Below are positions 1 through 64,000 of a stretch of 64,000 nt of DNA, piece by piece. Origin of the DNA: a bacterium (GTDB taxonomy: Bacteria; SAR324; JACQKK01). The notes beneath the pieces were generated by a model. The model worked only from the letters and a program-made list of their open reading frames with translations. It was not told the DNA's origin and did no database searches. Location of the stretch: contig OZ251219.1 in the NCBI GenBank assembly GCA_965240465.1, positions 1,088,001 to 1,152,000 on the forward strand, given 5' to 3'. The position numbers and the translations under genes were made by a program. The stretch's first letter is position 1; each line of letters begins with the position of its first letter.

Positions 1-71
1 AAGCTGGGAAGTTTTACAGTGCCTATCAAGAAAGGGTGGTGTTTTTAACTAGCGATGTATGAAGGTTACGA

Positions 72-1064
72 ATGGTTAGAATAATAGCGTTTTTGTTAGG
101 GGTGGTGGGATTAGTGCTGTGGTTGGTATATGTATTTGTGCCGCTTCTGGATGAGGTTCGGTATGCACAACGTGGCGAGCAATCTAGTTTGATTGGGAAT
201 AAGACTGAGGTTCAAGCTGGATTACAAACCGAGAATGGATCTATTTTAGTTAAAAGAGCAGTGAAATTGGTGGGAAAAGAGGATTTAGGGCGTCCTTTGA
301 CGGAGGTGCGGGGACGAGTGGGTGAATATTTAGAGGTAAAGTTACGTTTGGAAGAATCTTTGAGAGGGCGGATTGTACGCCAGCTAGAGCCTTTGACGGG
401 AGACGGACGAGTGCAAGTTTCCGTGTTTGCTGATCTACGAGCTGGGGGTAGCGAAGAGGATTTTTCTGAGAAAGCGTATTTGGAGTTAGCGGAGTCAAGG
501 TTTTCTGAGACCCAAATTGAACGCTTGAGTATTTCACTGTTGTTAGGTAGGCGTCCAGTAGCAGCCGTTGCGGGAGAAGGTCTAGGGGCAGGCTATGATG
601 AATGGAGTACTTGGGAACAAAGACAGATTGAACAGTTAGTCAAGGGGGCAGTGGGTTTCAATGAAGCACGGGGAGATACGCTAAAAATGGCTATCCTTAC
701 TCTGGAAGGCGATGCAAAAACCTCGTTCTTGCCTTTAGTAAGCAAGCAATCAGTAGCAGATACAGTTAAGGGCTCTACACTAGGAATTCAACCTGCTAGG
801 GGGGTCTTTTTCCTTGGGGGATCCCTAGGCTTGCTACTACTTTTAGTCCTGCTGGTGATCTTGCCGACAAGTAACAAAAAGCATCCGTTGCCACCAGAAT
901 CTCATTTTAACAGAGATGATAACCACCCAGAGAGCAATCCATTTGGTAGTGAGTTTGATGCCGCTACCTTCTCACCAGTAGCACCTGTCCGCAGGCAAGC
1001 CATCTCTGCGGCAAAAGAAGACCCCCAAACAACTGCCCGAATCCTAGAAGAGTGGCTTAGTTGA
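72..1064 (+). CDS. Short FliF-like (flagellar MS-ring C-terminal domain) membrane protein
   Basis: N-terminal TM; LEESLRGRIVRQLEPLTGDGRVQVSVFADL, IERLSISLLL and QIEQLVKGAVGFNEARGDTL resemble FliF RBM3; second TM; FliF-type tail AKEDPQTTARILEEWLS. 330 aa, much shorter than canonical FliF. Confidence 0.7.
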   Translation: MVRIIAFLLGVVGLVLWLVYVFVPLLDEVRYAQRGEQSSLIGNKTEVQAGLQTENGSILVKRAVKLVGKEDLGRPLTEVRGRVGEYLEVKLRLEESLRGRIVRQLEPLTGDGRVQVSVFADLRAGGSEEDFSEKAYLELAESRFSETQIERLSISLLLGRRPVAAVAGEGLGAGYDEWSTWEQRQIEQLVKGAVGFNEARGDTLKMAILTLEGDAKTSFLPLVSKQSVADTVKGSTLGIQPARGVFFLGGSLGLLLLLVLLVILPTSNKKHPLPPESHFNRDDNHPESNPFGSEFDAATFSPVAPVRRQAISAAKEDPQTTARILEEWLS

Positions 1065-1974
1065 TATTCTCGCACTTAGCTACGATATCGGAGGTTCTTG
1101 GTTTAATTTTACGGAATATGCGTCCATCGGCAACAACCAACCCTGATAAGATTATGGACATGCCAATCCATTCACGAACGCTAATCACCTCTTGAAAAAA
1201 TAGTACTCCCATGATGGTAGCAAATATGGGAATCAACATTACCGTCAGTACGGCATTTACTACTCCTGCTTCACGCACCAAGATGAAAAACAGTAAGAAG
1301 GCAATCGCAGATGAAAAAAATCCTAAACTCAACAAAGACAGCACCAGCGTCAAAGAAAATTCAGGCCAGTCGGTATTAGTCCAGAGTACCCACGGCGATA
1401 AGATAATAAAGCTGGTTAGCATCATGCCAGCACAGTTAGCAACATTGTCTATGTGTTTCATGCTATTTCTGATGTACACCCCATTAACCCCATAAAACAT
1501 CACGGCTAGTGTCACTAAAGATCCACCTAGGATGGGATTAGACCCTGCCTCGCCTGTTGCTCCGAACAGCACGATTATCCCTGTTATACCCATCAAGATA
1601 CTCAATAAACGTATGACGGTTATCTTATCATCTGTAGTGAAATAGTGGGCGGCCACCAAAGCAAAAAAAGGAGTAGTGGAATTAAAAACAGCGGTCATGC
1701 TAACACCGATAAAATTCTGCCCCCAAGCAATAAAAGTGACTGGGAGGGCAAAGCCAAATGCTCCTGCCACAAAATAATGACGAAAATTCTGTCGGAGGTT
1801 GAAGGGAATTTTCTTCCACCTCATCCAAGTTATCAAGGTTATAAATGCAATGACAGATCTAATCATCACAATGCTGGAAGGTGGTAATTGCTGAACCACA
1901 ATTTTATTAAACACAAAACTTAACGCCCATAAGAAACTCAGAGTTACCAGCATTATCCAACAACGGGTGTTCAT
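1057..1974 (-). CDS. DMT/EamA family transporter
   Basis: About 10 TM helices in two repeats; LWALSF near N-terminus, NSTTPFF, LIPIFATIMGVLFFQE. Confidence 0.9.
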   Translation of the reverse strand: MNTRCWIMLVTLSFLWALSFVFNKIVVQQLPPSSIVMIRSVIAFITLITWMRWKKIPFNLRQNFRHYFVAGAFGFALPVTFIAWGQNFIGVSMTAVFNSTTPFFALVAAHYFTTDDKITVIRLLSILMGITGIIVLFGATGEAGSNPILGGSLVTLAVMFYGVNGVYIRNSMKHIDNVANCAGMMLTSFIILSPWVLWTNTDWPEFSLTLVLSLLSLGFFSSAIAFLLFFILVREAGVVNAVLTVMLIPIFATIMGVLFFQEVISVREWIGMSIILSGLVVADGRIFRKIKPRTSDIVAKCENIN

Positions 1975-7052: not shown

Positions 7053-7586
7053 ATGAAGAATGATATTCACCCTGAGTTAAAATCCACTGAATTTAATTGT
7101 GCATGTGGCAAGAGTTTTACTTCTTTGTCTGTGTTGGGTGGTGGTGTTCACCTGGATATTTGTGCAGCTTGCCATCCTTTTTTCACGGGCAATGAAAAAT
7201 TGCTGGATACCGCCGGACGGATTGAAAGATTCAAGAGTCGTTATGACCGTCCCCAGCCTGTAAAAGATAAAGCTAAACCTAGTAAATCATCGGGTCAGGA
7301 AGCCAGAGAGAAACTGGTGATTAAACCAAAATCTGTTAAAAAACCGCGGTTGCTTTCGCATGGTAGAAATTTGGCTAACAAGGTCGCTAAGAACGCAAAA
7401 ACTGAGAACGCAAAAACTGAGAACGCAAAAGACGAAAAATCCACCACCAATAAACTGCCTCTTGCCGGCAAGACCGTGACACAAACCGTAGTACAAACGG
7501 ATGCGAGTAAAACAGATGAAGACAAGTCCGCGGTATCACAAAAAGATGAAAGCAAACCTGCCACCCTAAATACCGATTCTGCTTAG
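7053..7586 (+). CDS. rpmE: 50S ribosomal protein L31 (Zn-binding type) with long C-terminal extension
   Basis: MKNDIHP..CACG..DICAACHPFFTG..DTAGRIERF, then about 110 aa of K/T/A/D-rich tail. Confidence 0.93.
   Translation: MKNDIHPELKSTEFNCACGKSFTSLSVLGGGVHLDICAACHPFFTGNEKLLDTAGRIERFKSRYDRPQPVKDKAKPSKSSGQEAREKLVIKPKSVKKPRLLSHGRNLANKVAKNAKTENAKTENAKDEKSTTNKLPLAGKTVTQTVVQTDASKTDEDKSAVSQKDESKPATLNTDSA
7391..7435. repeat. 15-bp tandem repeat x3 in the rpmE tail (NAKTE)
   Basis: GAACGCAAAAACTGA x2 plus GAACGCAAAAGACGA. Confidence 0.9.
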
Positions 7587-7624
7587 AGCGTTTCGATTAG
7601 AGTATTTCGATTAGAGTATTTTGA
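7583..7624. repeat. 14-bp tandem repeat x3 filling the rpmE-prfA intergenic region
   Basis: TTAGAGCGTTTCGA TTAGAGTATTTCGA TTAGAGTATTTTGA. Confidence 0.9.
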
Positions 7625-8884: not shown

Positions 8885-11485
8885 ATGGGGCTATCGCTGT
8901 CTCGTTTTACACAGAAAGCCCAGGAATCTATCTTGGCAGCTCAACAGCTGGCTAAGGAGAAGCAACACGCTAAGATAGACCCTGAGCATCTGTTACTGAC
9001 GCTAATTAAACAGCCTGATGGACTGGCACACGGGATGCTGGTACAATCCGCTGGCGATCGGAATGGAGTAGATAAATTGGCGTCTCAATTGGAGCGTCAT
9101 TTAGAGCGATTGCCTAGGACGGCTTCATCGGGTACTCAGCCATATGTATCCAAGAAATTGCAGTCTGTGATTGTACGCTCTGAGCGTGAAGCAGCTTCTT
9201 TGCGCGATGAATTTACAGCTCCAGAGCATTTATTGATTGGCTTATCCTTAGATCATAGTGGGGTAGCTCAAGAGTTGTTGCGTAATCATGGGATTAATCG
9301 TCAGAGTGGTTTGGGGATTTTACGAGAATTACGGGGTAGTGGGAGTAATCTGGGGGAAGTGGAGAATCCGTTTGGGGCTTTGGACAAGTACTGCGTAGAT
9401 TTAATCCAGCAGGCTCGTTCAGCTAAGTTGGACCCTGTTATTGGTCGTGATGATGAGGTACGCCGCGTAATTCAGGTATTGAGTCGGCGACGCAAAAACA
9501 ATCCTGTCCTTATTGGCGAGCCGGGAGTGGGGAAAACAGCCATTGTAGAAGGTTTGGCTCAGCGTATTTTGGCGGGCGATGTGCCAGAGTCTTTGAGGAA
9601 TAAGAGGATTATGTCGCTAGATTTGGGAGCCTTGGTGGGAGGTGCTAAGTTTCGCGGTGATTTTGAGGATCGGGTGAAGTCCATCATCAGTGCAGTGGAG
9701 AGTGCTGCTGGTGCAGTGATTGTGTTCATTGATGAGCTGCATACCATTGTGGGGGCGGGGGCTTCTGAGGGTACGCTAGATGCTGGCAATATGCTTAAAC
9801 CAGCATTGGCACGTGGCAGTCTTCGCTGTGTTGGTGCTACCACTCTGCAGGAATACAAGAAATATATTGAAAAAGATCCTGCCTTAGAAAGACGCTTCCA
9901 GCAAATCATTGTGAACGAGCCTAGTGCAGAATCCACCATTGCCATTCTGCGGGGACTCAAAGAAAAATACGAAGTTCATCACGGCATTCGCATCAAGGAT
10001 TCTGCTATCATTGCGGCGGCTAGATTATCTGAACGCTACCTCTCAGAACGCTTCCTCCCCGATAAAGCCATTGATCTCATTGATGAATCATCTGCTAATC
10101 TCTGCATTGAAATAGATTCACTACCCACCGAACTAGATAAAATTGACCGCCGTGTCATGCAACTAGAAATAGAAGCCCAAGCCCTTAAAAACGAAGACGA
10201 CCCTCCTAGCAAAGAACGACTCAAAAAACTGGAAAAAGAATTGTTCTCCTTAAAGCAAAACAGCCAAGAAAAAAAAGAAAAATGGCAAAAAGAAAGAAAT
10301 GCTATTCGCTCTATCAGAGAACTCCAAGAAAAAATTGAACGCACCAGACAAGAAGAACAAGAAGCTCAAAGGGCTGGCAACTTGGAACTGGCTGCTCGCC
10401 TAAAATACGGCGTCCTTGATGAACTTAATAAAAACCTCACAAGTGCTAACCAAAAACTTCGCGACTTAGGCGGCAAACGCATGCTCAGAGAAGCCGTTGA
10501 AGAACAAGACATCGCAAGCGTATTACACCGCTGGACCGGCATCCCCGTAGAACGCATGCTCCAAAGCGAAAGACATAAACTACTCCAAATGGAAAAAACC
10601 CTCGCTTTGAGAGTTGTCGGACAAGCCCAAGCCCTGAAATCTGTCAGTAATGCCATCAGGCGTTCGCGGGCTGGTATCCAAGACCCTGACCGTCCGATTG
10701 CCTCTTTAATTTTTGCTGGGTCAACGGGAGTAGGCAAAACCGAACTGGCCCGCTCCTTGGCAGCCTTTCTCTTTGATGATGAACGCTCTATGCTCAGGCT
10801 TGATATGTCTGAGTACATGGAAAAACACTCCGTGGCACGCATGATCGGTGCTCCCCCAGGCTATATAGGCTTTGAAGAAGGTGGCTCACTCACCGAAGCC
10901 GTCCGCCGTAGGCCTTATTCGTTGCTGCTGCTTGACGAAATTGAAAAATCTCACCCCGATATATTTAATCTTTTTCTTCAAGTCATGGACTCAGGAAGAC
11001 TTACCAATAGCCAAGGTCGTACCGTTGATTTCCGCAATACCGTGATCATCATGACTACCAACATTGGACAGCAAGCCTTGCAAAATGGTCATCCGATTTC
11101 TCATCAGCAAATTGTCCAGCAAACCCGTGTCTCCCTGAGAAAATGCTTCCGACCCGAATTTCTTAACCGTCTTGATGAAATAATTGTATTCCAATCCATA
11201 GACAAGCAGGCTCTGGAAAAAATAGTGGACATTCAGCTGACAGACCTTCAGAAAAGACTCTCGGCACAGGGAATTCGTGTTTTTCTCTCTGCAGAGGCCC
11301 GTAGCTATCTTGCTAAGCAAGGATTTGATCCTCACTTCGGCGTCCGACCTCTGAAGAGGGTCATCCAGCAGGAAATTCTAGACGTTCTAGCTTCCAAAAT
11401 ACTGGAAGATGATCTCAAACAGGGTGATGTTATCAGGGTGATTAAGTCAGAAAAAGGAAGGCTAGAGTTCAATAAGGGGGAGTAG
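8885..11485 (+). CDS. clpB: ATP-dependent chaperone ClpB
   Basis: Two AAA+ modules (GEPGVGKT, GSTGVGKT), coiled-coil M domain, GAPPGYIGFEEGG. Confidence 0.97.
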   Translation: MGLSLSRFTQKAQESILAAQQLAKEKQHAKIDPEHLLLTLIKQPDGLAHGMLVQSAGDRNGVDKLASQLERHLERLPRTASSGTQPYVSKKLQSVIVRSEREAASLRDEFTAPEHLLIGLSLDHSGVAQELLRNHGINRQSGLGILRELRGSGSNLGEVENPFGALDKYCVDLIQQARSAKLDPVIGRDDEVRRVIQVLSRRRKNNPVLIGEPGVGKTAIVEGLAQRILAGDVPESLRNKRIMSLDLGALVGGAKFRGDFEDRVKSIISAVESAAGAVIVFIDELHTIVGAGASEGTLDAGNMLKPALARGSLRCVGATTLQEYKKYIEKDPALERRFQQIIVNEPSAESTIAILRGLKEKYEVHHGIRIKDSAIIAAARLSERYLSERFLPDKAIDLIDESSANLCIEIDSLPTELDKIDRRVMQLEIEAQALKNEDDPPSKERLKKLEKELFSLKQNSQEKKEKWQKERNAIRSIRELQEKIERTRQEEQEAQRAGNLELAARLKYGVLDELNKNLTSANQKLRDLGGKRMLREAVEEQDIASVLHRWTGIPVERMLQSERHKLLQMEKTLALRVVGQAQALKSVSNAIRRSRAGIQDPDRPIASLIFAGSTGVGKTELARSLAAFLFDDERSMLRLDMSEYMEKHSVARMIGAPPGYIGFEEGGSLTEAVRRRPYSLLLLDEIEKSHPDIFNLFLQVMDSGRLTNSQGRTVDFRNTVIIMTTNIGQQALQNGHPISHQQIVQQTRVSLRKCFRPEFLNRLDEIIVFQSIDKQALEKIVDIQLTDLQKRLSAQGIRVFLSAEARSYLAKQGFDPHFGVRPLKRVIQQEILDVLASKILEDDLKQGDVIRVIKSEKGRLEFNKGE

Positions 11486-12473: not shown

Positions 12474-14264
12474 ATGGGTTATAAACAAATCTCTGAATAT
12501 GGCTTGATAGGCAACATGCATACCGCTGCTTTGGTGGGAACGGACGGTGCAATGGATTGGCTACCCATGCCGTTTTTTGATTCTCCCTCAGTGTTTGGGG
12601 CTATCTTGGATGAGGAGCGTGGCGGTCATTTTAAGATATGTATGCAGGATGAGTGCCGCAGGCAACAGTTTTACTATCCTGATACCAATGTGCTGGTAAC
12701 TAGATTTTTGCACGGAGATGGTGTCGGTGAGGTGCAGGATTTCATGCCGATATACTCAACGGCTGGCAGTGATAATCCGCATTGTATTTATCGGTTGGTG
12801 AAGTGCGTGCGGGGAGAAATTAAAATACGCATGGAGTGTTATCCGTCATTTGATTATGGTTTGGGTAAGCTGAATGTTCGTTGTAGTGAGCGAGGAGCCT
12901 TATTTGAGAGTGGCCAGCAACGGATGGCATTATTGGCAGATGTGGAGATAAACGAGGATAAGAAGGGGGTAACATCTCAGTTTAGGATGTGCCAGGGCGA
13001 GAGTCGGGCATTTGCGCTGAATTATGGAGTGGAAGGGAGTGAGACTGACCTGCTCAGTAACAAAGTGGATGTCAAGCAGGCCCTAAAGGATACGGTTGAT
13101 TATTGGCAGCGATGGGTTGCCAGTAGCCATTATCAGGGACGCTGGCGAGAGATGGTTAATCGTTCGGCTTTGACCCTAAAGTTACTCACATTTAAGCCGA
13201 CAGGAGCTTTGGTGGCGGCTCCCACTACCAGTCTGCCTGAGGCGATTGGTGGAGAGCGTAACTGGGATTATCGTTATATTTGGATGAGGGATGCTTCTTT
13301 TTCAGTGTATGCGTTAATAAGGCTTGGCTTTATAGAAGAAGCCTCAGGCTTTATGAATTTTTTGTTCAAGCACATTATCACACCACGTGATAATGGGGAG
13401 TTACAAATTATGTACACCATTCACGGACAAAAAGAGTTACCCGAAAAACAACTAAATCACCTGAGTGGTTATCGTAATTCAGCACCCGTGAGAATAGGCA
13501 ATCGGGCTGTTGATCAACTACAGCTAGATATTTACGGAGAGCTACTGGATGCCATTTATCTTTTTAACAAGTATGGTGGCCCGATCTCTTATGAACAATG
13601 GCAGGGAGTAGAAAGGCTAGCCGATTGGGTCAGCGATAACTGGCAACGAAAGGATCAGGGGTTGTGGGAGCAACGCAAAGAACCGCAACATTTTGTTTAT
13701 TCAAAGGTGATGTGCTGGGTAGCCTTAGACCGGGCAATTCGGATTGCTAGAAAGCGTGGCTTACCGGGTAATATATCAAAATGGTTCTCCCAGCGCGATA
13801 AAATATATCGCGAGGTGATGAAAAAAGGCTGGAATAAAAAGCTCAACAGCTTTGTTCAGTACTACGGTAGCAGTTCCTTGGATGCCTCCAACCTAGTGAT
13901 GCCCCTAGTGTTGTTTATTGCCCCTAATGATCCCCGCATGGAAGCCACTATTGACAGTACCATCAAGCATCTGGTTTCCGATTCTCTGGTGTTCCGCTAT
14001 CTCAATTTTGACGATGGCTTCAAAAGCGAAGAAGGTACTTTTTCGCTGTGTAGCTTCTGGCTAGTGGAGGCACTCACGCGGGCCAAAAGACTGAAAGAAG
14101 CTCGCTTGGTGTTTGAGAAAATGCTCAGCTACGCCAATCATTTGGGTTTATACAGCGAAGAAATATCTCCCACCGGGGAATTGTTGGGCAATTTCCCCCA
14201 AGCATTCAGTCATTTTTCACTTATCAGTGCCGCCTTAAACCTAGACCGTACTCTTGGTTCTTAA
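12474..14264 (+). CDS. Glycoside hydrolase family 15 (trehalase/glucoamylase-like)
   Basis: YGLIGNMHTAALV, AAPTTSLPE..GGERNWDYRYIWMRD, QLDIYGE, GLWE, LYSEE..GNFPQAFSH. Confidence 0.93.
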   Translation: MGYKQISEYGLIGNMHTAALVGTDGAMDWLPMPFFDSPSVFGAILDEERGGHFKICMQDECRRQQFYYPDTNVLVTRFLHGDGVGEVQDFMPIYSTAGSDNPHCIYRLVKCVRGEIKIRMECYPSFDYGLGKLNVRCSERGALFESGQQRMALLADVEINEDKKGVTSQFRMCQGESRAFALNYGVEGSETDLLSNKVDVKQALKDTVDYWQRWVASSHYQGRWREMVNRSALTLKLLTFKPTGALVAAPTTSLPEAIGGERNWDYRYIWMRDASFSVYALIRLGFIEEASGFMNFLFKHIITPRDNGELQIMYTIHGQKELPEKQLNHLSGYRNSAPVRIGNRAVDQLQLDIYGELLDAIYLFNKYGGPISYEQWQGVERLADWVSDNWQRKDQGLWEQRKEPQHFVYSKVMCWVALDRAIRIARKRGLPGNISKWFSQRDKIYREVMKKGWNKKLNSFVQYYGSSSLDASNLVMPLVLFIAPNDPRMEATIDSTIKHLVSDSLVFRYLNFDDGFKSEEGTFSLCSFWLVEALTRAKRLKEARLVFEKMLSYANHLGLYSEEISPTGELLGNFPQAFSHFSLISAALNLDRTLGS

Positions 14265-14398
14265 ACAAGATTGAATTCCTCACTTTGCCTTACATCAATA
14301 AAATGCTAGAGTACTCCAGCAGTAGAACCAATGCTTAACCTAAATGGCAAAAAATACTAAAAAAGAAGCTGGTAAAAATACTGATCAGGTACGCAAGG

Positions 14399-15907
14399 AT
14401 GCATGCTTTATTAATCGCATTATGGCTGGGATTGTTCTTGGGATTGGTGTGGGGAGTTCAGAAACCCTGGGCAGTGGGAGTAGGTATTCTGCCCGCCTTG
14501 ATATGGGTGCAGGTCCTCATTTGGAGTAGCCACATCCGCTTTCATGGGGAGCGTACTCGCCCTAAGAAAAGACAACCCCAAAACCGACAACGAGCTCTGA
14601 GTAAGGCCTCACAGGCAGTAACTGGAGATAAGCCATTGTTGTCAGCAGGGAGGTTTTCCCGTTTTCGTTCTCAGTTGATGAAAACTCAGCAAAAGGGATT
14701 ACTTACTGGGCAACAACCCCAAACCCGCAGATTTCGTTTCTCTTCGTTTTCACCCTTGCCTAAACAACCAGACCCCCCCACGCAGATTCAGTCCGTACCT
14801 CCTAAACCTGCACTTTCTAGGCCTGTACCAGTTAAGCCTGCACCTACTAATTCTGCACCTACTAATCCTGCGATTGCTAAGCCTGTACCAAAAACTTTGG
14901 AAGAAAAACCTAGCCAGGACCGAACCTACAAGCCCTCTTCAGTACCCAAAATACTTGAGAACAAGGCATCAAAAGCATTGGCAGATCAACCATCAGTATC
15001 CGAATCACCCCCAAAACAGCTTACCCGAGTGCCAAAAACCCCCGTCCGCCAGAATACAAGCCAGCCATCTCTCAAGAATATGCCTCCTGAACTAAGCAAA
15101 ACTCGCCGCCAGCTAGCATCCCAAGGCACAATTGATGAAAGCCAAAACATGCTCGGCATATTTGATGACCTACGCATTCCACCAAAAAAGAAAACTAGCC
15201 TGCTCATCTCTGCCCAAAAACAGGTTAATCCTCAGCACCAAAAAAGCACACCCCCTAAAAATAAACTTAGCAAAATCGCACCGAAGGTATCCAGCCAGCC
15301 TAACAGGAACACTGCCAATCAGCCCAAAACCCAGCCCCTCAATCTGGCCACGGTAGCATGTGCCAATGGCGAATGGGAAAAAGCACGCCTACAGATTAAT
15401 AGTCATATCAGCCAGTCGCAGTCACCCCAACCTCAAGCCCTTAAACTGCAAACCATGCTAAACCTCCACGACGCTAACCCCGAAAACGCCTCCCAATACC
15501 TAGCACAATGGTTAAAACTACAACCCAACCTTGAGCTTGCCGATTTACAAGATCTCTGGAATTGCCTCCCTGATAATGCCAGTACAGATCTCACCCAGCT
15601 CACTCAAAAACAGACCCTCCAAACCCTCATTCAACAGGCACAAATATCCAAAAACTACCAAACCCTCCAAGATTGCTACCCCTTACTTAGCTCGCTCCTA
15701 GAAAAATTGGGCGAACAACAAGAACTCATCCAGTGCTTGAGGCAGCAACTCCAACTCCATGAACAACTGGGCGATATCCCCAAACAGCTTGAACTTATTG
15801 ACCAACTTGGCCGCCACTACTACAACATGAAGCAAACCAATGAGGCTCAAGCCTGCTACAAAGCAGGACTAAAACTCAAAGAACAGCTCAGCAACTCTGC
15901 TTCATGA
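14399..15907 (+). CDS. Hypothetical membrane-anchored protein with Pro/Gln/Lys-rich linker and helical TPR-like C-terminus
   Basis: Two N-terminal hydrophobic segments, long low-complexity region, LGRHYYNMKQTNEAQACYKAGL TPR-like end. Confidence 0.6.
   Translation: MHALLIALWLGLFLGLVWGVQKPWAVGVGILPALIWVQVLIWSSHIRFHGERTRPKKRQPQNRQRALSKASQAVTGDKPLLSAGRFSRFRSQLMKTQQKGLLTGQQPQTRRFRFSSFSPLPKQPDPPTQIQSVPPKPALSRPVPVKPAPTNSAPTNPAIAKPVPKTLEEKPSQDRTYKPSSVPKILENKASKALADQPSVSESPPKQLTRVPKTPVRQNTSQPSLKNMPPELSKTRRQLASQGTIDESQNMLGIFDDLRIPPKKKTSLLISAQKQVNPQHQKSTPPKNKLSKIAPKVSSQPNRNTANQPKTQPLNLATVACANGEWEKARLQINSHISQSQSPQPQALKLQTMLNLHDANPENASQYLAQWLKLQPNLELADLQDLWNCLPDNASTDLTQLTQKQTLQTLIQQAQISKNYQTLQDCYPLLSSLLEKLGEQQELIQCLRQQLQLHEQLGDIPKQLELIDQLGRHYYNMKQTNEAQACYKAGLKLKEQLSNSAS
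14807..14890. repeat. Degenerate in-frame 15-bp tandem repeat (PALSR/PVPVK/PAPTN/SAPTN/PAIAK)
   Basis: CCTGCACTTTCTAGG CCTGTACCAGTTAAG CCTGCACCTACTAAT TCTGCACCTACTAAT CCTGCGATTGCTAAG CCTGTACCA. Confidence 0.75.
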
Positions 15908-15989
15908 TTTCTTAAAAATAAGCACCGACTGTGCAATACTGAATGCAAAACTAGTTAATGCTAACTGCTACTTCCATCTGAAAAAAACC

Positions 15990-17891
15990 ATGGCTGACCC
16001 TCAATCACCCCCCGATGACTTGCCAGCTACAGACTCAAAAAGTAATTACAAAGCAGAGCAAACAAACAACGCTCATCCCTCCCAATCTCATCAAACAGAC
16101 TACCAACCGCCCAGTTTGATGGCCAAAGATCGCACTCACCCTCTCTATCGCCTGCGACACTCGCTGGCACATGTGTTGGCTCAGGCGGTCTGCCAAATTA
16201 GAGATAAACCCCGGTTAGGATATGGTCCCCCCACCGAGAATGGCTTCTTCTACGATTTTGAAGTCTCCCCGCCCCTTAAAGAAGAAGAATTCCCACTGCT
16301 AGAAAAACATATGCACCGTATCATCAACGAAGACCAAGCATTCCATCAAACTTCGCTACCAAGCCAGCAGTTAATTTCGCAACTGGAAGACCAAAACCAG
16401 CCCTACAAGGTGGAAATGGCTAAGGAATTGCTCGCAGAAGGTAATCAAACCCTAAGCGTCTACAAAAATGGTCCCTTTGCTGACATGTGTGACGGGCCTC
16501 ATGTGTCCTCCACCATGAAACTACCTGCCGATGCCTTCAAGCTGGACTTCTTGGCAGGGGCTTATTGGAAAGGTCAACAAGGAAATCCCATGCTCCAGCG
16601 AGTACACGGGCTAGCATTTGCAACTAAAAAAGAATTAAGTACTTTTCTCCAGCAGAGAGAACTAGCCAAACAGCGCGACCATCGCAAACTCGGTCAGCAG
16701 CTACAACTATTCACCATCTCAGACGAAGTAGGCAAAGGACTACCCCTCTGGACGCCCCACGGAGCTACCATCTGTGCCGAACTAGAAAAACTAGCCTCCG
16801 AAATGGAGTTCCAAGCCGACTACCAACGCGTTTCTACCCCTCACATTACCAAAGAGCAACTCTACCATACCTCAGGACATCTTCCCTACTACAAAGACTC
16901 TATGTTCCCTCCCATGACAGCAGAAAATGAAACTTTCTACCTAAAGCCCATGAACTGCCCTCATCACCATATGATCTACAAATCTCAGCCCCGTAGCTAC
17001 CGAGATCTACCTCTGCGACTAGCCGAATACGGCATGTGCTACCGCTATGAGCAATCCGGCGAACTCAGCGGATTACTGAGAGTACGTGCCCTGAACATCA
17101 ATGATGCCCACATTTACTGCACTCTTGATCAAATCAAACAAGAACTAATTGATGTAATGCAAATGCACCTTGATTATTATCGCTTGTTTGGCATCACTCG
17201 CTATTGGATGAGACTCTCTCTTCCAGATTTGGACAAAACTAAATATGCAGGCTCCAAAGATACATGGCTAAAAGCTAATAAACTGATAGAAACCGCCTTG
17301 CAGGAACTCGGTCAGCCCTTCCACACCGAAATAGGCGAAGCAGCTTTCTACGGACCTAAAATTGATTTCCAAATCGCCAATGTGGTTGGCAGGGAAGAAA
17401 CTGCCTCCACTAACCAGCTAGACCTCATCATGGCAGAGAATTTTGGGCTTGAATATGTAGGTCATGACAATCAATTACACCGCCCTCATATCATTCACCG
17501 GGCTCCCCTTGGTTCACACGAACGATTTATTGCCTTTTTAATTGAACACTATGGCGGAGCTTTCCCCACCTGGCTGGCACCGATCCAAGCTATTATCCTG
17601 CCCGTCAGCCCCAAGCTCCACTTACAATACTCTGAAAAACTGCATCAAATGATGAAAAAACAATTCATCCGTACTCAAATACTCTACAACAACGAATCCC
17701 TAGGCAAACGCGTCCGTTACGCTCAAACCCAGAAAATACCCAATATCATTATTATCGGAGACCAAGAGCAACAAGATTCTAGCATCTCATGGCGTAGGCA
17801 CGCCCAAACCGACCAAATCACTCTCTCCTTAGACATCTTCTTGAAAAAAATACTTAATGAGATAAACTCTAGGCTTGATTGGAGAAATTAA
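15990..17891 (+). CDS. thrS: Threonine--tRNA ligase
   Basis: RHSLAHVLAQA, DMCDGPHV, RDHRKLG, KPMNCPHH, YRYEQSGELSGLLRVR, AFYGPKID; no obvious TGS domain; the true start may be the later Met (MAKDR). Confidence 0.97.
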   Translation: MADPQSPPDDLPATDSKSNYKAEQTNNAHPSQSHQTDYQPPSLMAKDRTHPLYRLRHSLAHVLAQAVCQIRDKPRLGYGPPTENGFFYDFEVSPPLKEEEFPLLEKHMHRIINEDQAFHQTSLPSQQLISQLEDQNQPYKVEMAKELLAEGNQTLSVYKNGPFADMCDGPHVSSTMKLPADAFKLDFLAGAYWKGQQGNPMLQRVHGLAFATKKELSTFLQQRELAKQRDHRKLGQQLQLFTISDEVGKGLPLWTPHGATICAELEKLASEMEFQADYQRVSTPHITKEQLYHTSGHLPYYKDSMFPPMTAENETFYLKPMNCPHHHMIYKSQPRSYRDLPLRLAEYGMCYRYEQSGELSGLLRVRALNINDAHIYCTLDQIKQELIDVMQMHLDYYRLFGITRYWMRLSLPDLDKTKYAGSKDTWLKANKLIETALQELGQPFHTEIGEAAFYGPKIDFQIANVVGREETASTNQLDLIMAENFGLEYVGHDNQLHRPHIIHRAPLGSHERFIAFLIEHYGGAFPTWLAPIQAIILPVSPKLHLQYSEKLHQMMKKQFIRTQILYNNESLGKRVRYAQTQKIPNIIIIGDQEQQDSSISWRRHAQTDQITLSLDIFLKKILNEINSRLDWRN

Positions 17892-20960: not shown

Positions 20961-21055
20961 TTGTCGTGCTAGACTGGTGAAGTGTTAACCTAGTGTTTTT
21001 ATGTGGTTGCAGTACATAAATCACGGTATTTTTTGTTTCTTTTGCGGGTAGGCTT

Positions 21056-21775
21056 ATGAAATATTTACCAAGATTGGTAGGGGTGTTATTGGTTGGTGGG
21101 TTGGTAGGCTGTTCTTCCTCAGGTGATAATAAGAGTAGTGCAAGTGCATGTGCGGGTGTTAAGGTAGCAAACGTGACCGGTGAGGCTACTTATACGGTGG
21201 AGTTTGTTTCCACTTGGAGTGCGGCTACTCATCCGGTTAACTTTCCAAGTGACCCTCATTTTTCGCCCTTGATTGGAGCCACTCACAAGGAAGGATTGGA
21301 TCTATTTAAGCTGGGTGAAATTGCTTCAGATGGAATAGAATTCATGGCTGAGACTGGCGGTAGAAGCAAGCTGGAAAGTGAGATTGCCTGCTTTAAGGTG
21401 GCTGGCAAAGTTGAGAATGTGATACTAGCTACAGGGGGTCGTACTGATGTTCCTGTAAAAAAATCAGTCACGTTTGAGATAAACAAGAGTCATTCTTATG
21501 TGTCCTTAGTCGCCATGCTAGCACCCAGCCCTGATTGGTTTGTGGGCATACATGATGAGAACCTATTGGACGCAAGTGGCGATTGGTTGACAGAGAAGGT
21601 ATTCCCCTTGCGTTTGTATGATGCTGGCACTGATGACGGTTTGACTTACAACTCAGCTAATGCTGAGACCCAACCCCGTGGGGTTATTACTAGATTGACC
21701 AGTGGTACCAACGACGCCAGCTTTGATGATGGCAATCCACCAGTGGGTACATTTACATTCAGATTACAACAGTAG
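21056..21775 (+). CDS. Spondin_N (F-spondin/mindin-like) domain lipoprotein
   Basis: Lipobox LVGC; ATYTVEF..WS..THP..FP..PHFSPLIGATH, MAETG, MLAPSPDWFVG, YDAGTD. Confidence 0.88.
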   Translation: MKYLPRLVGVLLVGGLVGCSSSGDNKSSASACAGVKVANVTGEATYTVEFVSTWSAATHPVNFPSDPHFSPLIGATHKEGLDLFKLGEIASDGIEFMAETGGRSKLESEIACFKVAGKVENVILATGGRTDVPVKKSVTFEINKSHSYVSLVAMLAPSPDWFVGIHDENLLDASGDWLTEKVFPLRLYDAGTDDGLTYNSANAETQPRGVITRLTSGTNDASFDDGNPPVGTFTFRLQQ

Positions 21776-21792
21776 CTGGGGATAGGGAAGGG

Positions 21793-24709: not shown

Positions 24710-24741
24710 CCGTGTGTCGGGTGGCAGTGTCATGCGGTAGC

Positions 24742-25770: not shown

Positions 25771-25897
25771 TTTTTACCAGTGGTTCTGTTGGAGTTTTTC
25801 ATTTATCAGCTGGCAAGCAAATTTATTAGCAGCTAACCTTACCTGATTATTTGCTGTGCTGCTCTGAGACGAATAATTCCACGCTAGTTTTTACATG

Positions 25898-25926
25898 TTG
25901 ACATATTACTTGGATGAACATACAAC
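25898..25926 (+). promoter_or_regulatory. Candidate sigma70 promoter of fabI-queF-dapB
   Basis: TTGACA-N17-TACAAC, 55 bp before the fabI ATG; the -10 element lacks its final T. Confidence 0.35.
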
Positions 25927-25981
25927 CTAAGATGGGGTATGCGAGGAAAAGGGCTGGTAACCGTGATAAAAATGGTAATTC

Positions 25982-32176: not shown

Positions 32177-32178
32177 AT

Positions 32179-39632: not shown

Positions 39633-39697
39633 CTGATGGGACTAATCTTAATCAGTAAGAAAGATTGGTACGTCCTGCTTGTGAAATAAGCTACCAC

Positions 39698-39792
39698 GGC
39701 ACTAAGTATCAATGGCACTAAGTATCAGTGGCACTAAGTATCAATGGCACTAAGTATCAATGGCACTAAGTATCAATGGCACTAAGTATCAT
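39698..39792. repeat. 16-bp tandem repeat x6 between the permease and ATPase genes
   Basis: GGCACTAAGTATCAAT units with one A>G variant and a last unit 1 bp short; no spacers. Confidence 0.95.
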
Positions 39793-39880
39793 GGCAATAA
39801 GGTACTTGAATTATACCGCCATTATTCATATTATTTGCCTACATACTGATTAGAACGTCCCACGCCTTTATAAGTTACCC

Positions 39881-50385: not shown

Positions 50386-50430
50386 TAGTTTGGGGCGTGA
50401 TAATTTGGGGCGTGATAGTTTGGGGCGTGG
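50386..50430. repeat. 15-bp tandem repeat x3 immediately upstream of the 50382 start codon
   Basis: TAGTTTGGGGCGTGA TAATTTGGGGCGTGA TAGTTTGGGGCGTGG. Confidence 0.9.
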
Positions 50431-53976: not shown

Positions 53977-55431
53977 TTGAAAATGTTTCACGAACCTAAA
54001 TCACTGAGCTGGTTATGCGAGCAAGGGGTGGAAATTCCACTTCCACAGCAAGTGTGGATTGAAAAAAGCGTTCCTTTGGAGGCAATCTCACCTGGGGCTT
54101 GCTTGATGCCCGGTACTAGCATTAGTGGTGAGAAATCACGCTTGGAACGCGGCTGTGTGGTGAGTGAAGCTGCGGGGGTGTCGGTTATTAATACTCACGT
54201 GGGTGAGGGTAGTCGCTTGGGAGTGTTGGGCCCTTTGGTTTTGCGAGATAGCTGTGTGGGACCAAATTGTGTGCTGGGTTCAGGGAGCGCGGAGCAGTCG
54301 GTTTTTTTGGGTGGAGATGCTGGTGAACATAGCGTGACGGGTCTGGGGTTCTCAGCCCGCCAAGGTACGCTGTTGGAAGAAAATGCACGGGTAGGTCAGC
54401 ACAGCGATACCAAAATGAGCATTCTGTTCCCTTGGGTTACTTTAGGGAGTCAAGTCAATTGGTGCGATGTTTTACTCAGTGGCGGCACGGGAAGTCAGAA
54501 TGGGGCTTTTACCGAGGTGGGTAGTGGCACAATACATTTTAATTATACCCCCCGCGGCGATAAAGCTACCGCCTCCTGCTTGGGAAATGTAACAAAAGGA
54601 GTCTTCCTGAGAAGTGAGCGTATTTTTATCGGGGGCAATAACAGCTTGATTGGCCCACTTACAGCCGATTTTGGTGCCATCACCCCGGCAGGAGGAATTC
54701 ACAAAATGCACTTGGCAGGAGAACTCAATTTCCCATGCCAACCCCCTCAAACCCCCCATGCTCTTCAAACCCCCCATGCTCTTCAAACCCCCCATGCCCC
54801 TCAAACCCCCCATGCTCTTCAAACCCCCCATGCTCTTCAAACCCCCCATGCTCTTCAAACCCCCCATGCTCTTCAAACCCCCCATGCCCCCCAATCCATC
54901 GTGCAGACAAAACCATTTGATGTTAATAATTATCGCTATATTCAAAGAATTTATCAGTCTCAAATGCACTTTGTGGCTGAACTATGTGCGTTGGAAGTTT
55001 GGTATCGGCAGGTGCGTCAGTATTTGGCAGCTTCTCACGCGGGGAAATTATTTTTGTATCGGCAAGGAGCAGAAGTTTTGAAACTCAATCTGGAATTCAG
55101 ATTGAAAGAACTCACCAATTTGGCAGTGAATATGCAGAATTCACTGGCAGCTTCATCCTCACAGGATGACAGGGTTCGCTTGCAACAGCAGTCGCTGCTG
55201 AAACACTGGCATGCAATTATGAAGCATGTCCACACGATACGACAACAGCCATGGAACGCTCCCTTATCGCTTATAAAAGCCTTAGACAAAGCCGCAGCCC
55301 AATACGACTGCTATACAGGTGTGATAAAATCCTTGCCCGAAGTAGCAGTTCAAGCAGGGATAGCTTGGCTGATTGAAATTACCCAAGCGATTTTTCCTCC
55401 AGAATTTCAGCAGCTAGATAAGATTGTTTGA
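53977..55431 (+). CDS. GlmU-related left-handed beta-helix (hexapeptide repeat) protein
   Basis: GTLLEE.A....DTKMSILFPWVTLGS.VNWCD.L..GGT....TEVGS..IHFNYTP.GDKATAS; no nucleotidyltransferase motif recognised. Confidence 0.65.
   Translation: MKMFHEPKSLSWLCEQGVEIPLPQQVWIEKSVPLEAISPGACLMPGTSISGEKSRLERGCVVSEAAGVSVINTHVGEGSRLGVLGPLVLRDSCVGPNCVLGSGSAEQSVFLGGDAGEHSVTGLGFSARQGTLLEENARVGQHSDTKMSILFPWVTLGSQVNWCDVLLSGGTGSQNGAFTEVGSGTIHFNYTPRGDKATASCLGNVTKGVFLRSERIFIGGNNSLIGPLTADFGAITPAGGIHKMHLAGELNFPCQPPQTPHALQTPHALQTPHAPQTPHALQTPHALQTPHALQTPHALQTPHAPQSIVQTKPFDVNNYRYIQRIYQSQMHFVAELCALEVWYRQVRQYLAASHAGKLFLYRQGAEVLKLNLEFRLKELTNLAVNMQNSLAASSSQDDRVRLQQQSLLKHWHAIMKHVHTIRQQPWNAPLSLIKALDKAAAQYDCYTGVIKSLPEVAVQAGIAWLIEITQAIFPPEFQQLDKIV
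54748..54891. repeat. 18-bp in-frame tandem repeat x8 encoding QTPHA(L/P)
   Basis: CAAACCCCCCATGCTCTT units; units 3 and 8 encode Pro at the last position. Confidence 0.97.
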
Positions 55432-58284: not shown

Positions 58285-59887
58285 ATTCCTTGTTGTTACC
58301 GCGGAGATACTGGTTAATAAAATACCGCTGGAACGAAAGCCGATCATGGTCAAACAAGAACTTCAGCGTGCTCTGTTACTGAAAGATAAGCGGGTGTCCT
58401 TACCTGCTATCCAGCTTCCTGCTGATGAAATAACAGCTGAAGCAAGCTGGGAGGCTTATCTTGATTCAGGAGCAGATCTTCTAAAAGATGCCTCGGTGGC
58501 ATTTTTATTACAAGAGAGATGGTTGCCTGCTCCTTGGAGTGATAGCGATCAGCAAGCTATGCAGGAATTGTTGGAGATTCGTCGTTTGGATAATGTCTGG
58601 CAATTGCGGGGAGCTTGTGCCCCTGCTGGTTCATGGCTGATGGATCAATTGCAATTCTTACTCAGGGAGCAGCCTTCTCGGGCATTGGAGGGCGCGGCTA
58701 AGGCGGTGAAGACGGAGGTGGTATCGCCCTTAGAACCGCTGCAGTTGGCACCTTGTTCCATCTCCAAGTTATGGGGTAGGGAGCAATGGTTCACAGGGAT
58801 AGAAGCTCGTGGGGTTTCCCGAGTGGGTTTTGCAAAGAATGCGGTTGCCCTTCCGCATGCCTTGGGTTTGTTGCCTCGGTCTTTGCTAGGTAAGGATGTA
58901 AAAAGCCTTGCCCCTATATTGCTCAAGGTGTTAGAACCTCACCCCGTTGAAGGCTGGGGAGATCTGTACTTGGAGGTACATCAACAAAAATGGGAGGTTT
59001 ATTTGGTGCTGGATGTCAATCAAGAGCGGTGGCAACAAGGTAGGGGCGAGCTACTTTGTGGCATCTCTGAGGAAGCACTCCAAGCTGGCAACGAAGATGC
59101 GATCCGTCAGCAGTTTATAGAGCGTATTCAGGATTATGAGGCAATTCGCCGTACCATAGACGAGGCTTTGGAAGAAGATTTGGCTGGATCAGGAGGCATT
59201 TCTGCGGTTTCCCTTCGGGGGCGTCAGCAGGCTCAGGCTAAGCAGCCCGCAGAGTGGTTAAGGCAAGAGAAACGCATTCGTGCTACAGTTGAACAATTGT
59301 TGCAGGTACACTCTCTGCGTCGCGGCGATGTAGTCACCCTGCCTCCCAAAACCCTCCACTCGCTGAGGGGAGGTATGCGGGTATTGGAGTTTCAGACACC
59401 GACCTATGAGCGACTGATTGCTATGTCTTCCCAAAAAGTGCTTACTCAAAACCACTGGGATACCCAAGCCGCCTTGCAACTAGCCAACATGACACTTCCC
59501 GATAAGACCGTCACCAGTACGCGTTTGGGAACGGACAAACTCACCGCAGGCGACCGACTGATAAGCGATGGTAGTAAGAACACTCAGCTGGCAGATTTCC
59601 CTGAATTCAGGGTTCAGCACTTTATTTTGCCCGCGGGACAGCCAGCCAGCTTTCTTCAGCCTTCCACTTATCAGCTTTTGTTTGTTGCTCACGGACAAGG
59701 CAACATGCATGCTAAATTGCCCGCCACACATTCCACTGATAAAAATCCCTACCCCTTGGAAGCAGGACAAGCTTGGTTGCTACCCGCCCAACAACCCTCC
59801 TTCACATTTGAAGCAATATCCCCCACTCTAGAGCTGGTACTTGCTCAGCCAAAACTCGCTCCCTTAGCTTCAGTGCCGCAAATATAA
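58277..59887 (+). CDS. Cupin protein distantly resembling type I mannose-6-phosphate isomerase
   Basis: K.WG.E.WF, PILLKVL, EVH..K.E, P.TLHSL..G..VLEFQ, second cupin barrel at the C-terminus; start uncertain. Confidence 0.55.
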   Translation: MYKFLVVTAEILVNKIPLERKPIMVKQELQRALLLKDKRVSLPAIQLPADEITAEASWEAYLDSGADLLKDASVAFLLQERWLPAPWSDSDQQAMQELLEIRRLDNVWQLRGACAPAGSWLMDQLQFLLREQPSRALEGAAKAVKTEVVSPLEPLQLAPCSISKLWGREQWFTGIEARGVSRVGFAKNAVALPHALGLLPRSLLGKDVKSLAPILLKVLEPHPVEGWGDLYLEVHQQKWEVYLVLDVNQERWQQGRGELLCGISEEALQAGNEDAIRQQFIERIQDYEAIRRTIDEALEEDLAGSGGISAVSLRGRQQAQAKQPAEWLRQEKRIRATVEQLLQVHSLRRGDVVTLPPKTLHSLRGGMRVLEFQTPTYERLIAMSSQKVLTQNHWDTQAALQLANMTLPDKTVTSTRLGTDKLTAGDRLISDGSKNTQLADFPEFRVQHFILPAGQPASFLQPSTYQLLFVAHGQGNMHAKLPATHSTDKNPYPLEAGQAWLLPAQQPSFTFEAISPTLELVLAQPKLAPLASVPQI

Positions 59888-59959
59888 CAGCCGAGAGTAT
59901 AACAGCCGCAAATATAACAGCCGAGAGTATAACAGCCGCAAATATAACAGCCGAGAATA
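59875..59959. repeat. 15-bp tandem repeat with alternating variants (30-bp higher-order unit)
   Basis: GCCGCAAATATAACA / GCCGAGAGTATAACA alternating, 5 full units plus a partial one; unit 1 holds the upstream stop codon. Confidence 0.93.
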
Positions 59960-60964: not shown

Positions 60965-61006
60965 CTAAGTTATTCTGGCTAAGTTATTCTGGCTAAGTTA
61001 TTCTGG
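60965..61006. repeat. 14-bp perfect tandem repeat x3 at a convergent junction
   Basis: CTAAGTTATTCTGG x3. Confidence 0.93.
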
Positions 61007-62412: not shown

Positions 62413-62564
62413 GGGTGTAATTTATTGCTGGGACGGGTTATTATTTTCTGGGTACGTGGTAGTTTTGTTTTTCATCGGTATTAGAAATGTGTAAAGGATT
62501 AAGAGCTATCTCGGGAGTGTACTGGCAGCCATTAGGTTTTATCAAATTCAGCGAGGTATAAGAT

Positions 62565-64000
62565 ATGCTCTCTCAGTTGGTTATAACCAATCTAGCCACC
62601 ATAGAACATTTGCAAATAGACTTGCCTACGGGTTTTTTAGTATTCACTGGCGAGACTGGATCAGGAAAATCCATGCTGGTGGATGCCTTACGCTTTGTGA
62701 TGGGTGTACCTGCTGGGGCTGAAAAGCGTCGTAGTGCCAGTGCTGAAACCCAAGTAAAGGCAGTATTCAAGCTAACTCCGACCTCTGAGGCATCCAATTG
62801 GTTGCATACCATGGGAATAGCGGTAAATGGCGAGGTGGTTATTTGCCGCTCTTTGTCGGCTCAGGGGCGTAGTCGTTCGGTGGTGAATGACCAAGTAATT
62901 TCGCAATCGCAGTTGGGCACTTTGGGGGGATACTTGGTGAACATTCACGGTCAGCATGATAATCAATTGCTCCTTCATCCGCGCAATCATGTCAATTTTC
63001 TGGATTCATTTGCCTCCCTGACCGAACTACGAGACCAAGTAACTAAAACCCATCAAGAATATAGCCAACTGATGGAGGAACAAAAAGCCTTGAACGCATT
63101 GCTGAAAGAAAAAGATTGGCGAGAAAAAATGCTGGAAGAAACCGTGGCCGATATTGAATCCGCTTCCCCTCACACAGAAGATGAAGCTAATTTGCGCTCT
63201 GAGCATGCTCGCCTGATGCACTCAGAGCAGTTGCATGCCTATCTGGCATCGGCAGACGATTTTATTTATGAGGGTGAAATCAATGCCTTGCAATTGCTGA
63301 AGCAAGCCCAAAAATGCTTGCAGGATGCTGATCGCCTGGATCAATCGCTACGGGTGGTATCCAAGCATTTGGAACCACTTTGCTGCCAAATCCAAGATCT
63401 GCACCATGAATTAGCCACCTACTTGGGCAAGCTGGAAAATAATCCTTCTCAACTGGAACTTCTCAACGAGCAGCTAGCAAGCGTAGAAAAAATATCTCGC
63501 CGCTATGGTTCACTGGCAGAAGCCCAGCAGAAATTGCAGCAATCCCGCCTTGAGCTAAAGAAGATACAAAACTCAACTCAAGAGCAAGCTCAGCTGGAAG
63601 AACGGATCATCAAGCAAGCTACTAGGCTACATGAATTATCTAGCCAGTTGTCCCAAGTCAGAAAAGAACACGCTTCCAAACTGACCGAAATGGTTAACCA
63701 AGAACTACAAGAACTCGGCATGGAACATGCTTGCTTTGAGATTGATGTTCAACCATTGCGTCCCTCCCAAGCAGAAGACGATAACGGTAAGCCCCGCTAC
63801 AGCCCACGAGGTATGGATGCAGTGGAATTTATTCTTAGTCCCAACCCGGGCTTAGAACCGCGGCCGCTATCTCGGATTGCCTCTGGTGGCGAACTGAGCC
63901 GCGTCATGCTGGCACTGAAAACGGTTCTCGCCCAGGCAGACTTTACCAACACCCTAATCTTTGATGAAGTGGATTCAGGCATCAGTGGTCGGACTGCAGA
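62565..64000 (+). CDS. recN: DNA repair protein RecN (runs off the window end; absent from the ORF track)
   Basis: Own translation: MLSQLVITNLATIE..FTGETGSGKSMLVDAL, IHGQHD, NPG..RPLSRIASGGELSRVMLALK, LIFDEVDSGISG. Confidence 0.95.
   Translation, partial: MLSQLVITNLATIEHLQIDLPTGFLVFTGETGSGKSMLVDALRFVMGVPAGAEKRRSASAETQVKAVFKLTPTSEASNWLHTMGIAVNGEVVICRSLSAQGRSRSVVNDQVISQSQLGTLGGYLVNIHGQHDNQLLLHPRNHVNFLDSFASLTELRDQVTKTHQEYSQLMEEQKALNALLKEKDWREKMLEETVADIESASPHTEDEANLRSEHARLMHSEQLHAYLASADDFIYEGEINALQLLKQAQKCLQDADRLDQSLRVVSKHLEPLCCQIQDLHHELATYLGKLENNPSQLELLNEQLASVEKISRRYGSLAEAQQKLQQSRLELKKIQNSTQEQAQLEERIIKQATRLHELSSQLSQVRKEHASKLTEMVNQELQELGMEHACFEIDVQPLRPSQAEDDNGKPRYSPRGMDAVEFILSPNPGLEPRPLSRIASGGELSRVMLALKTVLAQADFTNTLIFDEVDSGISGRTA

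Follow-up and report, generated by a model that had tools for sequence, protein, structure and literature searches.

The stretch of DNA studied here, referred to as the window, comprises 64,000 nt of a bacterial chromosome (G000:C1:1088001-1152000; GenBank GCA_965240465.1, contig OZ251219.1). The genome, G000, is a single contig of 1,599,138 bases with 45% G+C. Throughout the window (1 to 64,000), a 500-nt profile displays a sawtooth of G-C skew with an opposite A-T skew. Genome-wide measurements and within-gene shuffles confirmed that the sawtooth is real, extends over the whole genome and lies far beyond chance. We named 50 open reading frames (ORFs) of the window with Pfam, and called 1,210 genes in G000 with a self-trained codon log-odds ORF picker. 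The calls cover 88% of the genome; the picker always uses the first start codon of each ORF and drops small genes.

The clpB gene (8885 to 11485, plus strand, identified by Pfam) carries the switch within one conserved gene. Its G-C skew at fourfold-degenerate sites (hereafter fourfold skew) was +0.38, −0.21, −0.65 and −0.36 in successive quartiles, changing sign between quartiles 1 and 2, as had been claimed from inspection of the sequence. Other examples extend over several genes. In a trio on the plus strand consisting of a GH15 glycosidase, a P/Q/K-rich protein without a Pfam match and thrS (12474 to 17891), the skew runs from +0.32 to about −0.38 with no reset at the internal gene starts. 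In a run of four plus-strand genes encoding a GLUG protein, a Spondin_N protein, a MoeA fusion and a cytidylyltransferase (18612 to 24709), it stays at about +0.3 for about 4 kb and then falls below zero. An ABC permease gene (37983 to 39632, plus strand) has fourfold skews of +0.59, +0.32 and −0.07 in its successive thirds. On the minus strand, the corresponding coding-strand values are +0.26, −0.45 and −0.61 for an M16 peptidase (27993 to 31010), which on the plus strand appears G-rich at its left side and C-rich at its right side. They are −0.02, −0.47 and −0.88 for a TPR protein with a long P/E/T/A/K-rich C-terminal tail (32179 to 34422). Upward steps occur both at the convergent junction between dapB and the peptidase (27955 to 27992, +0.44) and at the divergent junction between obg and a fabI-like gene (25771 to 25981, +0.48).

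The base counts with which the sawtooth had first been described were hand-picked 60-nt lines, and all eight were reproduced exactly. They lie in clpB (9301-9360, G25:C4; 10021-10080, G8:C19), the permease (38161-38220, G26:C5; 39181-39240, G6:C22), the minus-strand peptidase (28021-28080, G21:C5; 30901-30960, G7:C16) and the folK region (31441-31500, G3:C27; 32221-32280, G24:C5). The 11 flips noted in the original prediction all proved to be upward steps between adjacent 500-nt windows, ranging from +0.08 (at 62450) to +0.48 (at 25930). As described, they span all junction types: by our gene calls, six are convergent, two divergent and three tandem. We then defined an upward flip as a cumulative G-C minimum with a prominence of at least 35, and the boundary zone as intergenic DNA plus the outer 5% of genes, which occupies 20% of the G000 genome. 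Ten of the 14 upward flips in the window fell in this zone. Genome-wide, the zone held 192 of 352 upward flips (binomial p = 3e-46 against its 20% share) versus only 57 of 348 downward turns, and the median flip spacing was about 3.7 kb. The reported co-variation of G with T was also found, with a correlation between GC skew and AT skew of −0.59 in the window and −0.39 in the genome. Despite this anticorrelation in the whole sequence, AT skew is flat at fourfold sites.

Tandem repeats occur at several places along the profile. A negative patch at 54.5-55.0 kb was rejected as part of the gradient, since it is caused by a C-rich in-frame tandem repeat (54747 to 54887, plus strand; 18 nt × 7.8). 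Its unit corresponds to six codons with 96% matching, and the host ORF (53977-55431) has no Pfam match; an antisense ORF (54472-54969) is open across the repeat. Six of the 12 tandem-repeat rows of the window lie in intergenic gaps (7583-7621, 31636-31672, 39698-39801, 50389-50429, 59875-59959 and 60965-61006), with periods of 13-30 nt and 81-100% matching. Some of them are at or near upward flips, for example 31636-31672, which lies beside a flip at 31684.

For the genes themselves, we used D4, the pooled first-third minus last-third G-C skew at their fourfold sites. The control permuted the fourfold third bases within genes in 500 rounds; this comparison had been set beforehand as the one on which the pattern could fail. 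The gradient exceeded the within-gene shuffles in both window and genome. D4 was 0.404 in the window (37 genes, z = 10.4) and 0.226 in the genome (936 genes, z = 27), with 0 of 500 shuffles as high in either case, and it was positive in all 16 of the 100-kb bins of G000.

The sawtooth had been said to ignore gene orientation, which turned out to be a misreading. Genes of both orientations have a coding strand that begins G-rich (5') and ends C-rich (3'). The pattern appears independent of orientation because a run from G/T-rich to C/A-rich is its own reverse complement. Across gene deciles, the coding-strand fourfold skew falls from −0.04 to −0.33, and the decile curves are near-identical for the 562 plus-strand and 648 minus-strand genes. 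Genome-wide, the mean step was +0.17 at convergent and +0.22 at divergent junctions. At tandem junctions, it was +0.13 to +0.18 for gaps of at least 100 nt versus +0.05 to +0.06 for gaps below 30 nt. An ordinary bacterial genome is expected to step down at a convergent junction; here, 74% of 113 convergent junctions step up because two C-rich 3' ends meet.

A further remark, that the restriction-modification (R-M) and GLUG genes are less affected, has a basis of only four genes, although genes longer than 3 kb are indeed flat. In the compact R-M pair (36321-37849), the gene for a ThaI-type restriction endonuclease shares 16 nt with the beginning of an N6/N4 DNA methylase gene. Across 20001-40000 of the window, contigs from two runs of one sample gave near-identical sequence; the sole variant patch lay in a repeated part of the GLUG gene, and no usable single-nucleotide polymorphisms were obtained. 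At about 34937-34983, contig depth rises 8- to 10-fold in two public runs, and many contigs end there with unrelated flanks. This segment behaves like sequence common to other organisms of the sample, and we suspect a transfer RNA (tRNA) gene.

We next asked which end of the gene anchors the gradient. With distance from the start (capped at 2 kb) as predictor, deviance in G000 dropped by 788, versus 124 with distance from the stop, and a stop term added to the start term gained about 10. This does not agree with the proposed process acting symmetrically about intergenic sites. The slope with start distance was −0.40 per kb, compared with +0.55 for the effect of lying on the leading strand. Among genes of 600-3000 nt, the start coefficient was −0.37±0.04 and the stop coefficient +0.14±0.05. 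Genes of 1-3 kb begin at a skew of about 0 and end at a skew that deepens with length to a floor of about −0.4, which is reached about 1.5-2 kb from the start. For the 150 non-first genes of tight operons (gap of at most 10 nt), the position relative to the unit start was a better predictor than the position relative to the gene's own start (141.8 versus 91.1). Correspondingly, the reset between neighbours was 0.07 at gaps of at most 10 nt and 0.22-0.26 at gaps of 41-200 nt. These results suggest that each tooth of the sawtooth corresponds to a transcription unit rather than to an individual start codon, and they place the anchoring in G000 mainly on the transcription-unit start.

In a scan of 20 kb for promoter and terminator consensus sequences, counts matched shuffles (25 terminator-like hairpins versus 20.5±4.3), and the scan did not place the resets on promoters. 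In the ribosomal-protein/EF-Tu region, where genes are short and gaps large, there was no clear trend at the unit level. Genes in the top tertile of codon-score density had a weaker gradient, but as a proxy for expression this score is confounded by the skew itself.

The chromosome-scale skew of G000 is of the ordinary two-arm type, with a cumulative G-C minimum at 0.61 Mb and a maximum at 1.56 Mb; the plus strand is the leading strand in the replichore containing the window. Start and stop coefficients were −0.41 and +0.06 for leading-strand genes and −0.39 and +0.01 for lagging-strand genes. The original prediction holds in that the process acts locally, with resets at the boundaries of units, and differs from chromosome-scale replication skew. 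The equal slopes in the two classes speak against fixed priming or initiation sites, because lagging-strand genes are as start-anchored as leading-strand ones.

To characterize what changes along genes, we examined the bases separately. From the first to the last decile of G000 genes, fourfold G decreased from 0.215 to 0.150 and fourfold C increased from 0.229 to 0.311, and A and T were flat. At two-fold purine sites (NNR), G/(A+G) fell from 0.475 to 0.349. Relative to the strand-averaged intergenic level of about 0.42, this is a passage from G excess to G deficit. At two-fold pyrimidine sites (NNY), C/(C+T) stayed at about 0.36-0.38 (0.370 in the first and 0.376 in the ninth decile) and reached 0.415 in the last. 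With NNY flat until the last decile while NNR drops, cytosine deamination, which had been proposed, is not the visible driver. In the congener described below, NNY C/(C+T) does climb along genes, from 0.378 to 0.468. The shift had the same direction in all eight fourfold codon families and all four next-base contexts, and therefore is not a matter of particular codons or tRNAs. When 3-mers and 5-mers from the first 600 nt of genes were set against those from beyond 1.2 kb, the G excess could not be traced to any one word; repetitive giant genes contaminate the 3' set of this comparison.

The gradient closely resembles the replication contrast at fourfold sites. The first-minus-last-third vector was A +.005, C −.058, G +.052 and T +.001, and the leading-minus-lagging vector was A −.005, C −.058, G +.047 and T +.015. 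The two are near-equal in direction and size (cosine 0.97). The match is partial at NNY sites, where the shift was about 0.06 in the replication contrast versus about 0.02 in the gradient.

Protein composition follows the gradient in part. The original prediction listed Pro, Gln, Thr and His as enriched at C-termini. Enrichment of Gln and Pro is specific to the genus and that of His weakly so, whereas that of Thr is not specific. Late/early ratios in G000 and its congener were 1.20 and 1.27 for Gln, 1.15 and 1.11 for Pro, 0.69 and 0.90 for Asp, and 0.90 and 0.81 for Val; in relatives and diverse loci, these ratios were about 1.0. Several proteins, such as L31 and the TPR protein, have long P/Q/T/K-rich C-terminal tails. 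The L31 gene (7053-7586) encodes 177 residues, but the match to the L31 family covers residues 1-64 only and is followed by a K/T/N/A/S-rich tail with a 15-nt × 2.7 repeat (7390-7430).

To analyze how widely the gradient is distributed, we expressed it as a slope, the within-gene log-odds of G versus C per kb at fourfold sites. It was −0.31±0.02 in G000 and −0.45±0.05 in its congener G001 (record OZ252237.1, the source of clpB locus L001), the one sequenced sister species. The slope was 0.02, 0.09 and 0.005 in three members of the same family (G004, G008 and G009), −0.004 and 0.04 in two of the same order (G027 and G028), and 0.005±0.010 in 79 diverse loci. The asymmetry of flips followed the same division. 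In G001, the boundary zone holds 55 of 86 upward flips versus 9 of 90 downward turns; the asymmetry is absent from the five relatives. The clpB comparison excludes a protein constraint as the cause, since 55 other clpB genes lack the gradient (first-minus-last-quartile fourfold skew, mean −0.08, standard deviation 0.20). The clpB gene of G001, whose product is 79% identical to that of G000, has quartiles of +0.57, −0.24, −0.65 and −0.55. Thus, the gradient was shown to be confined to one genus among the genomes sampled. Ten further family genomes, represented by small samples, gave a pooled D4 of 0.044±0.015 (individually −0.14 to +0.16), so that a faint family-wide tendency is possible, a hint that the trait may be graded. 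Among the 64 diverse clpB loci scored, L001 aside, the only clearly positive difference was in an 11.5-kb contig of a Chthoniobacterales metagenome-assembled genome (L027; first versus last third −0.17 versus −0.44, z = 3.9, six genes).

Orthologues of G000 and G001 have a median protein identity of 64% (172 pairs) and, with an identity of 0.363 at fourfold sites, approach saturation there. The D4 values of individual genes nevertheless correlate between the two genomes (r = 0.42, 127 pairs of at least 900 nt), and the pattern is therefore maintained and not passively inherited.

Genes for rho, mfd, rnhA (RNase HI), mutS, a UDG-family protein, topA and priA are present in both G000 and G001. 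The search for recG matched only mfd, so that recG was found in 0 of 5 genomes (G000, G001, G004, G008 and G009). A mutY gene (TIGR01084) scored above the family cut-off in G001 (C1:1615527-1616330) and three family relatives; in G000, the mutY search gave only a weak Nth-like match of 59.7 bits. One CDA-fold deaminase was found in G000 and none in G001, and no Y-family polymerase was found in G000, G001 or G009. Outside the window, downstream of the intact rnhA of G000 (255696-256100), the segment G000:C1:261288-271494 contains four partial RNase H (PF00075) matches, all to the C-terminal 40 residues. Each has an in-frame stop, and their spacing is about 3.0-3.5 kb; the array resembles a large tandem duplication that includes part of a gene.

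Taking into account the coding-strand polarity, the anchoring and the lineage distribution, we propose that this genus carries a transcription-linked, strand-asymmetric substitution bias that is graded along the transcription unit, a reading to which we give a probability of roughly 55%. Near the unit start, the non-template (coding) strand would gain G at silent sites, and over about 1.5-2 kb this gain would give way to the opposite, G-poor and C-rich state. Because the bias would act on DNA, it could also enrich C-terminal parts of proteins that are under weak constraint in Gln, Pro and similar residues. The crossing of NNR sites from G excess to G deficit against the intergenic level suggests two opposing transcription-linked components, one promoter-proximal and one covering the whole unit with opposite sign. 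The former might reflect a non-template strand that stays single-stranded for longer, for example in R-loops, in paused complexes or in underwound DNA behind RNA polymerase; the latter might reflect strand-specific repair. R-loops or a repair asymmetry, both raised in the original prediction, are possible sources. We infer a mutational rather than selective cause because the codon families shift uniformly, the signature resembles that of replication, the effect spills over into proteins, and it occurs in a reduced genome (1.6-1.7 Mb in this genus) but not in the larger ones of family relatives (2.3-5.2 Mb). A bolder version, which we put forward only tentatively, is that about the first 2 kb of every unit in the genus are subject to a strand-specific regime of mutagenesis or repair, anchored at the promoter, that rivals the leading/lagging contrast and reshapes protein termini.

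Several observations weigh against the proposed substitution bias. The link to transcription and the mutational origin are both inferences from gene layout and base composition. The classical signature of C deamination on the non-template strand is absent in G000, with NNY at about 0.36-0.38. With A and T static at fourfold sites, G and C appear on balance to replace each other, a change that no simple lesion accounts for. Among the 12 gene families tried in G000, G001, G004, G008 and G009, no difference in gene content explains the lineage specificity. Nor is the anchoring purely 5': the stop-distance term of +0.14±0.05 persists in G000, and in G001 (164 genes, 600-860 kb) the start and stop coefficients were −0.27 and +0.31, with no significant difference in fit. 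Profiles scale partly with gene length. The 42 G000 genes longer than 3 kb by our calls are flat, at a fourfold skew of about −0.26 to −0.45 and without a G-rich start, unlike the genes of 3-4.5 kb in the G001 sample (n = 4), which have a strong gradient. When orthologues in differing operon contexts in G000 and G001 were compared (9 and 14 pairs), the differences were small and had no consistent direction.

A different cause, selection on the transcript, would favour G-rich, C-poor RNA early in a unit and C-rich, G-poor RNA late, whether by preventing premature loading of Rho but allowing termination at the unit end, by controlling R-loops, or through an RNA polymerase paced by cytidine triphosphate (CTP), as proposed for fungi. 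It would fit a pattern that is defined by the coding strand and resets at unit starts, in a genome that has Rho and in which, over 20 kb, terminator-like hairpins are no commoner than in shuffles. It would also fit the two-fold sites, where G moves and C/(C+T) is flat, a behaviour that no simple mutational model reproduces. For fungi, an adaptive argument based on CTP has been published (PMC3315797). However, such selection, itself weak, would need to be effective at thousands of silent sites of a reduced 1.6-Mb genome, although relatives with 2.3-5.2 Mb have no such pattern. It would also have to account for a smooth gradient of 2-3 kb instead of a C-rich block by the stop, for the altered protein composition, for the mirrored replication-strand signature at fourfold sites and for the weaker gradient in genes of the highest codon-score density, and we consider it unlikely. 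Slightly more doubtful is a process with sources of opposite sign at both unit ends, the skew being their local mix, for instance sense transcription starting 5' and antisense or read-through transcription arriving from the 3' side. It would be a transcriptional form of the bidirectional process suggested in the original prediction. Profiles that are near-linear from start to end and scale partly with gene length, the about equal start and stop terms of G001, the stop term of +0.29±0.06 for G000 genes with a convergent downstream neighbour, and the crossing of the intergenic level at NNR sites are all consistent with it. Against this, the start dominates in G000, and the stop term is 0.01±0.09 where a tandem gap of at least 60 nt would be expected to hold a promoter, the opposite of what a bidirectional-promoter model predicts; under 2 kb, start and stop terms are inseparable from gene length.

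The length of bacterial Okazaki fragments resembles the 1-4 kb period of the sawtooth, and fixed Okazaki priming, or many intergenic initiation sites, might produce a sawtooth of lagging-template exposure. The fourfold signature equals the leading/lagging contrast, and by our own derivation the predicted orientation of the sawtooth matches observation in both replichores. Such a mechanism, however, predicts an excursion at the 5' side of co-directional genes and at the 3' side of head-on genes, whereas both classes are start-anchored equally, and the cumulative skew of the chromosome is of the ordinary two-arm kind; we regard it as very improbable. Position-dependent codon bias within genes has been reported for Escherichia coli, and selection linked to translation could act through adaptation that rises along the gene, given the cost of late errors, or through a low early ramp. 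In tight operons, though, the gradient tracks the transcription unit and not each start codon; all eight codon families and the amino-acid composition shift together; relatives have no gradient; and tuf and fusA, with fourfold skews of +0.08 and −0.17, have no special preference for C over G. We therefore give this explanation hardly any credence.

Descriptions of bacterial strand asymmetry usually contain one term for replication direction and another for a coding-strand effect that is uniform. In G000, a third term is added by the position within the transcription unit, and it is as large as that of replication. If the substitution bias we favour is indeed mutational, bacterial mutation spectra can vary systematically inside genes, which bears on codon-usage models, the ratio of nonsynonymous to synonymous substitution (dN/dS), gene finding and the prediction of origins from skew in lineages of this kind. 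Operon structure in uncultured organisms could then also be read from sequence only. If a promoter-anchored regime should prove true, promoter positions as well as operon structure could be read from composition, its geometry would resemble the start-proximal hypermutation zones of vertebrate genes, and the genus would lend itself to studying how bacterial mutation spectra are shaped by transcription start, R-loops and repair. If the cause is selective, it would reveal an unrecognised constraint on transcript composition.

Compared with known systems, a position-dependent intragenic skew gradient has apparently not been described in bacteria: full-text searches, which cover subscription journals only in part and do not prove absence, returned none. 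The GC skew of bacterial replication shares the direction and size of the fourfold signature. It differs in that the sign in G000 changes every few kb and not twice per chromosome, in that the gradient is independent of fork direction, and in that the NNY shift of the gradient is about one-third of the replication contrast. The classical transcription-associated asymmetry of bacteria is C→T on the non-template strand. It is likewise defined relative to the coding strand; we found no report of its dependence on position along the unit in bacteria. In E. coli, an inequality between A→G and T→C that depends on expression and not on the replication strand has been reported (bioRxiv 10.64898/2026.05.22.727198). 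It concerns the same site class that moves here, but highly expressed genes there have more T→C, which is not obviously the direction of a G-rich start.

Whichever cause applies, parallels in fungi and mammals suggest that strand bias is linked in a general way to the phases of transcription. Ginno et al. (2013, PMC3787257) reportedly described GC skew at the ends of human genes. According to Polak, Querfurth & Arndt (2010, PMC2927911), mammalian transcripts have a localized strand asymmetry in their first 1-2 kb atop an asymmetry of the gene body. As proposed here for G000, there is a start-anchored component with a reach of 1-2 kb that favours G on the non-template strand and a second component across the whole unit, and the cause proposed there is single-strandedness or R-loops near the start. 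In contrast to G000, where two-fold pyrimidine sites are static, the local mammalian component is an excess of C→T over G→A; moreover, that work used polarised substitution rates, whereas ours uses equilibrium composition only.

The nearest published analogue we found is that of unicellular fungi (PMC3315797), in which GC skews are opposite at the 5' and 3' ends of genes, the coding strand being C-biased 5' and G-biased 3'. The polarity is thus the reverse of that in G000, with its coding strand G-rich 5' and C-rich 3', and the setting there is eukaryotic RNA polymerase II, as against bacterial operons here and a pattern confined to one genus among the genomes sampled. The resemblance extends to an intragenic, graded skew with opposite signs at the two ends, to effects on both fourfold sites and amino-acid usage, and to a comparatively uniform AT skew. 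For the fungi, too, cytosine deamination was judged insufficient, and mutational and adaptive explanations were both kept.

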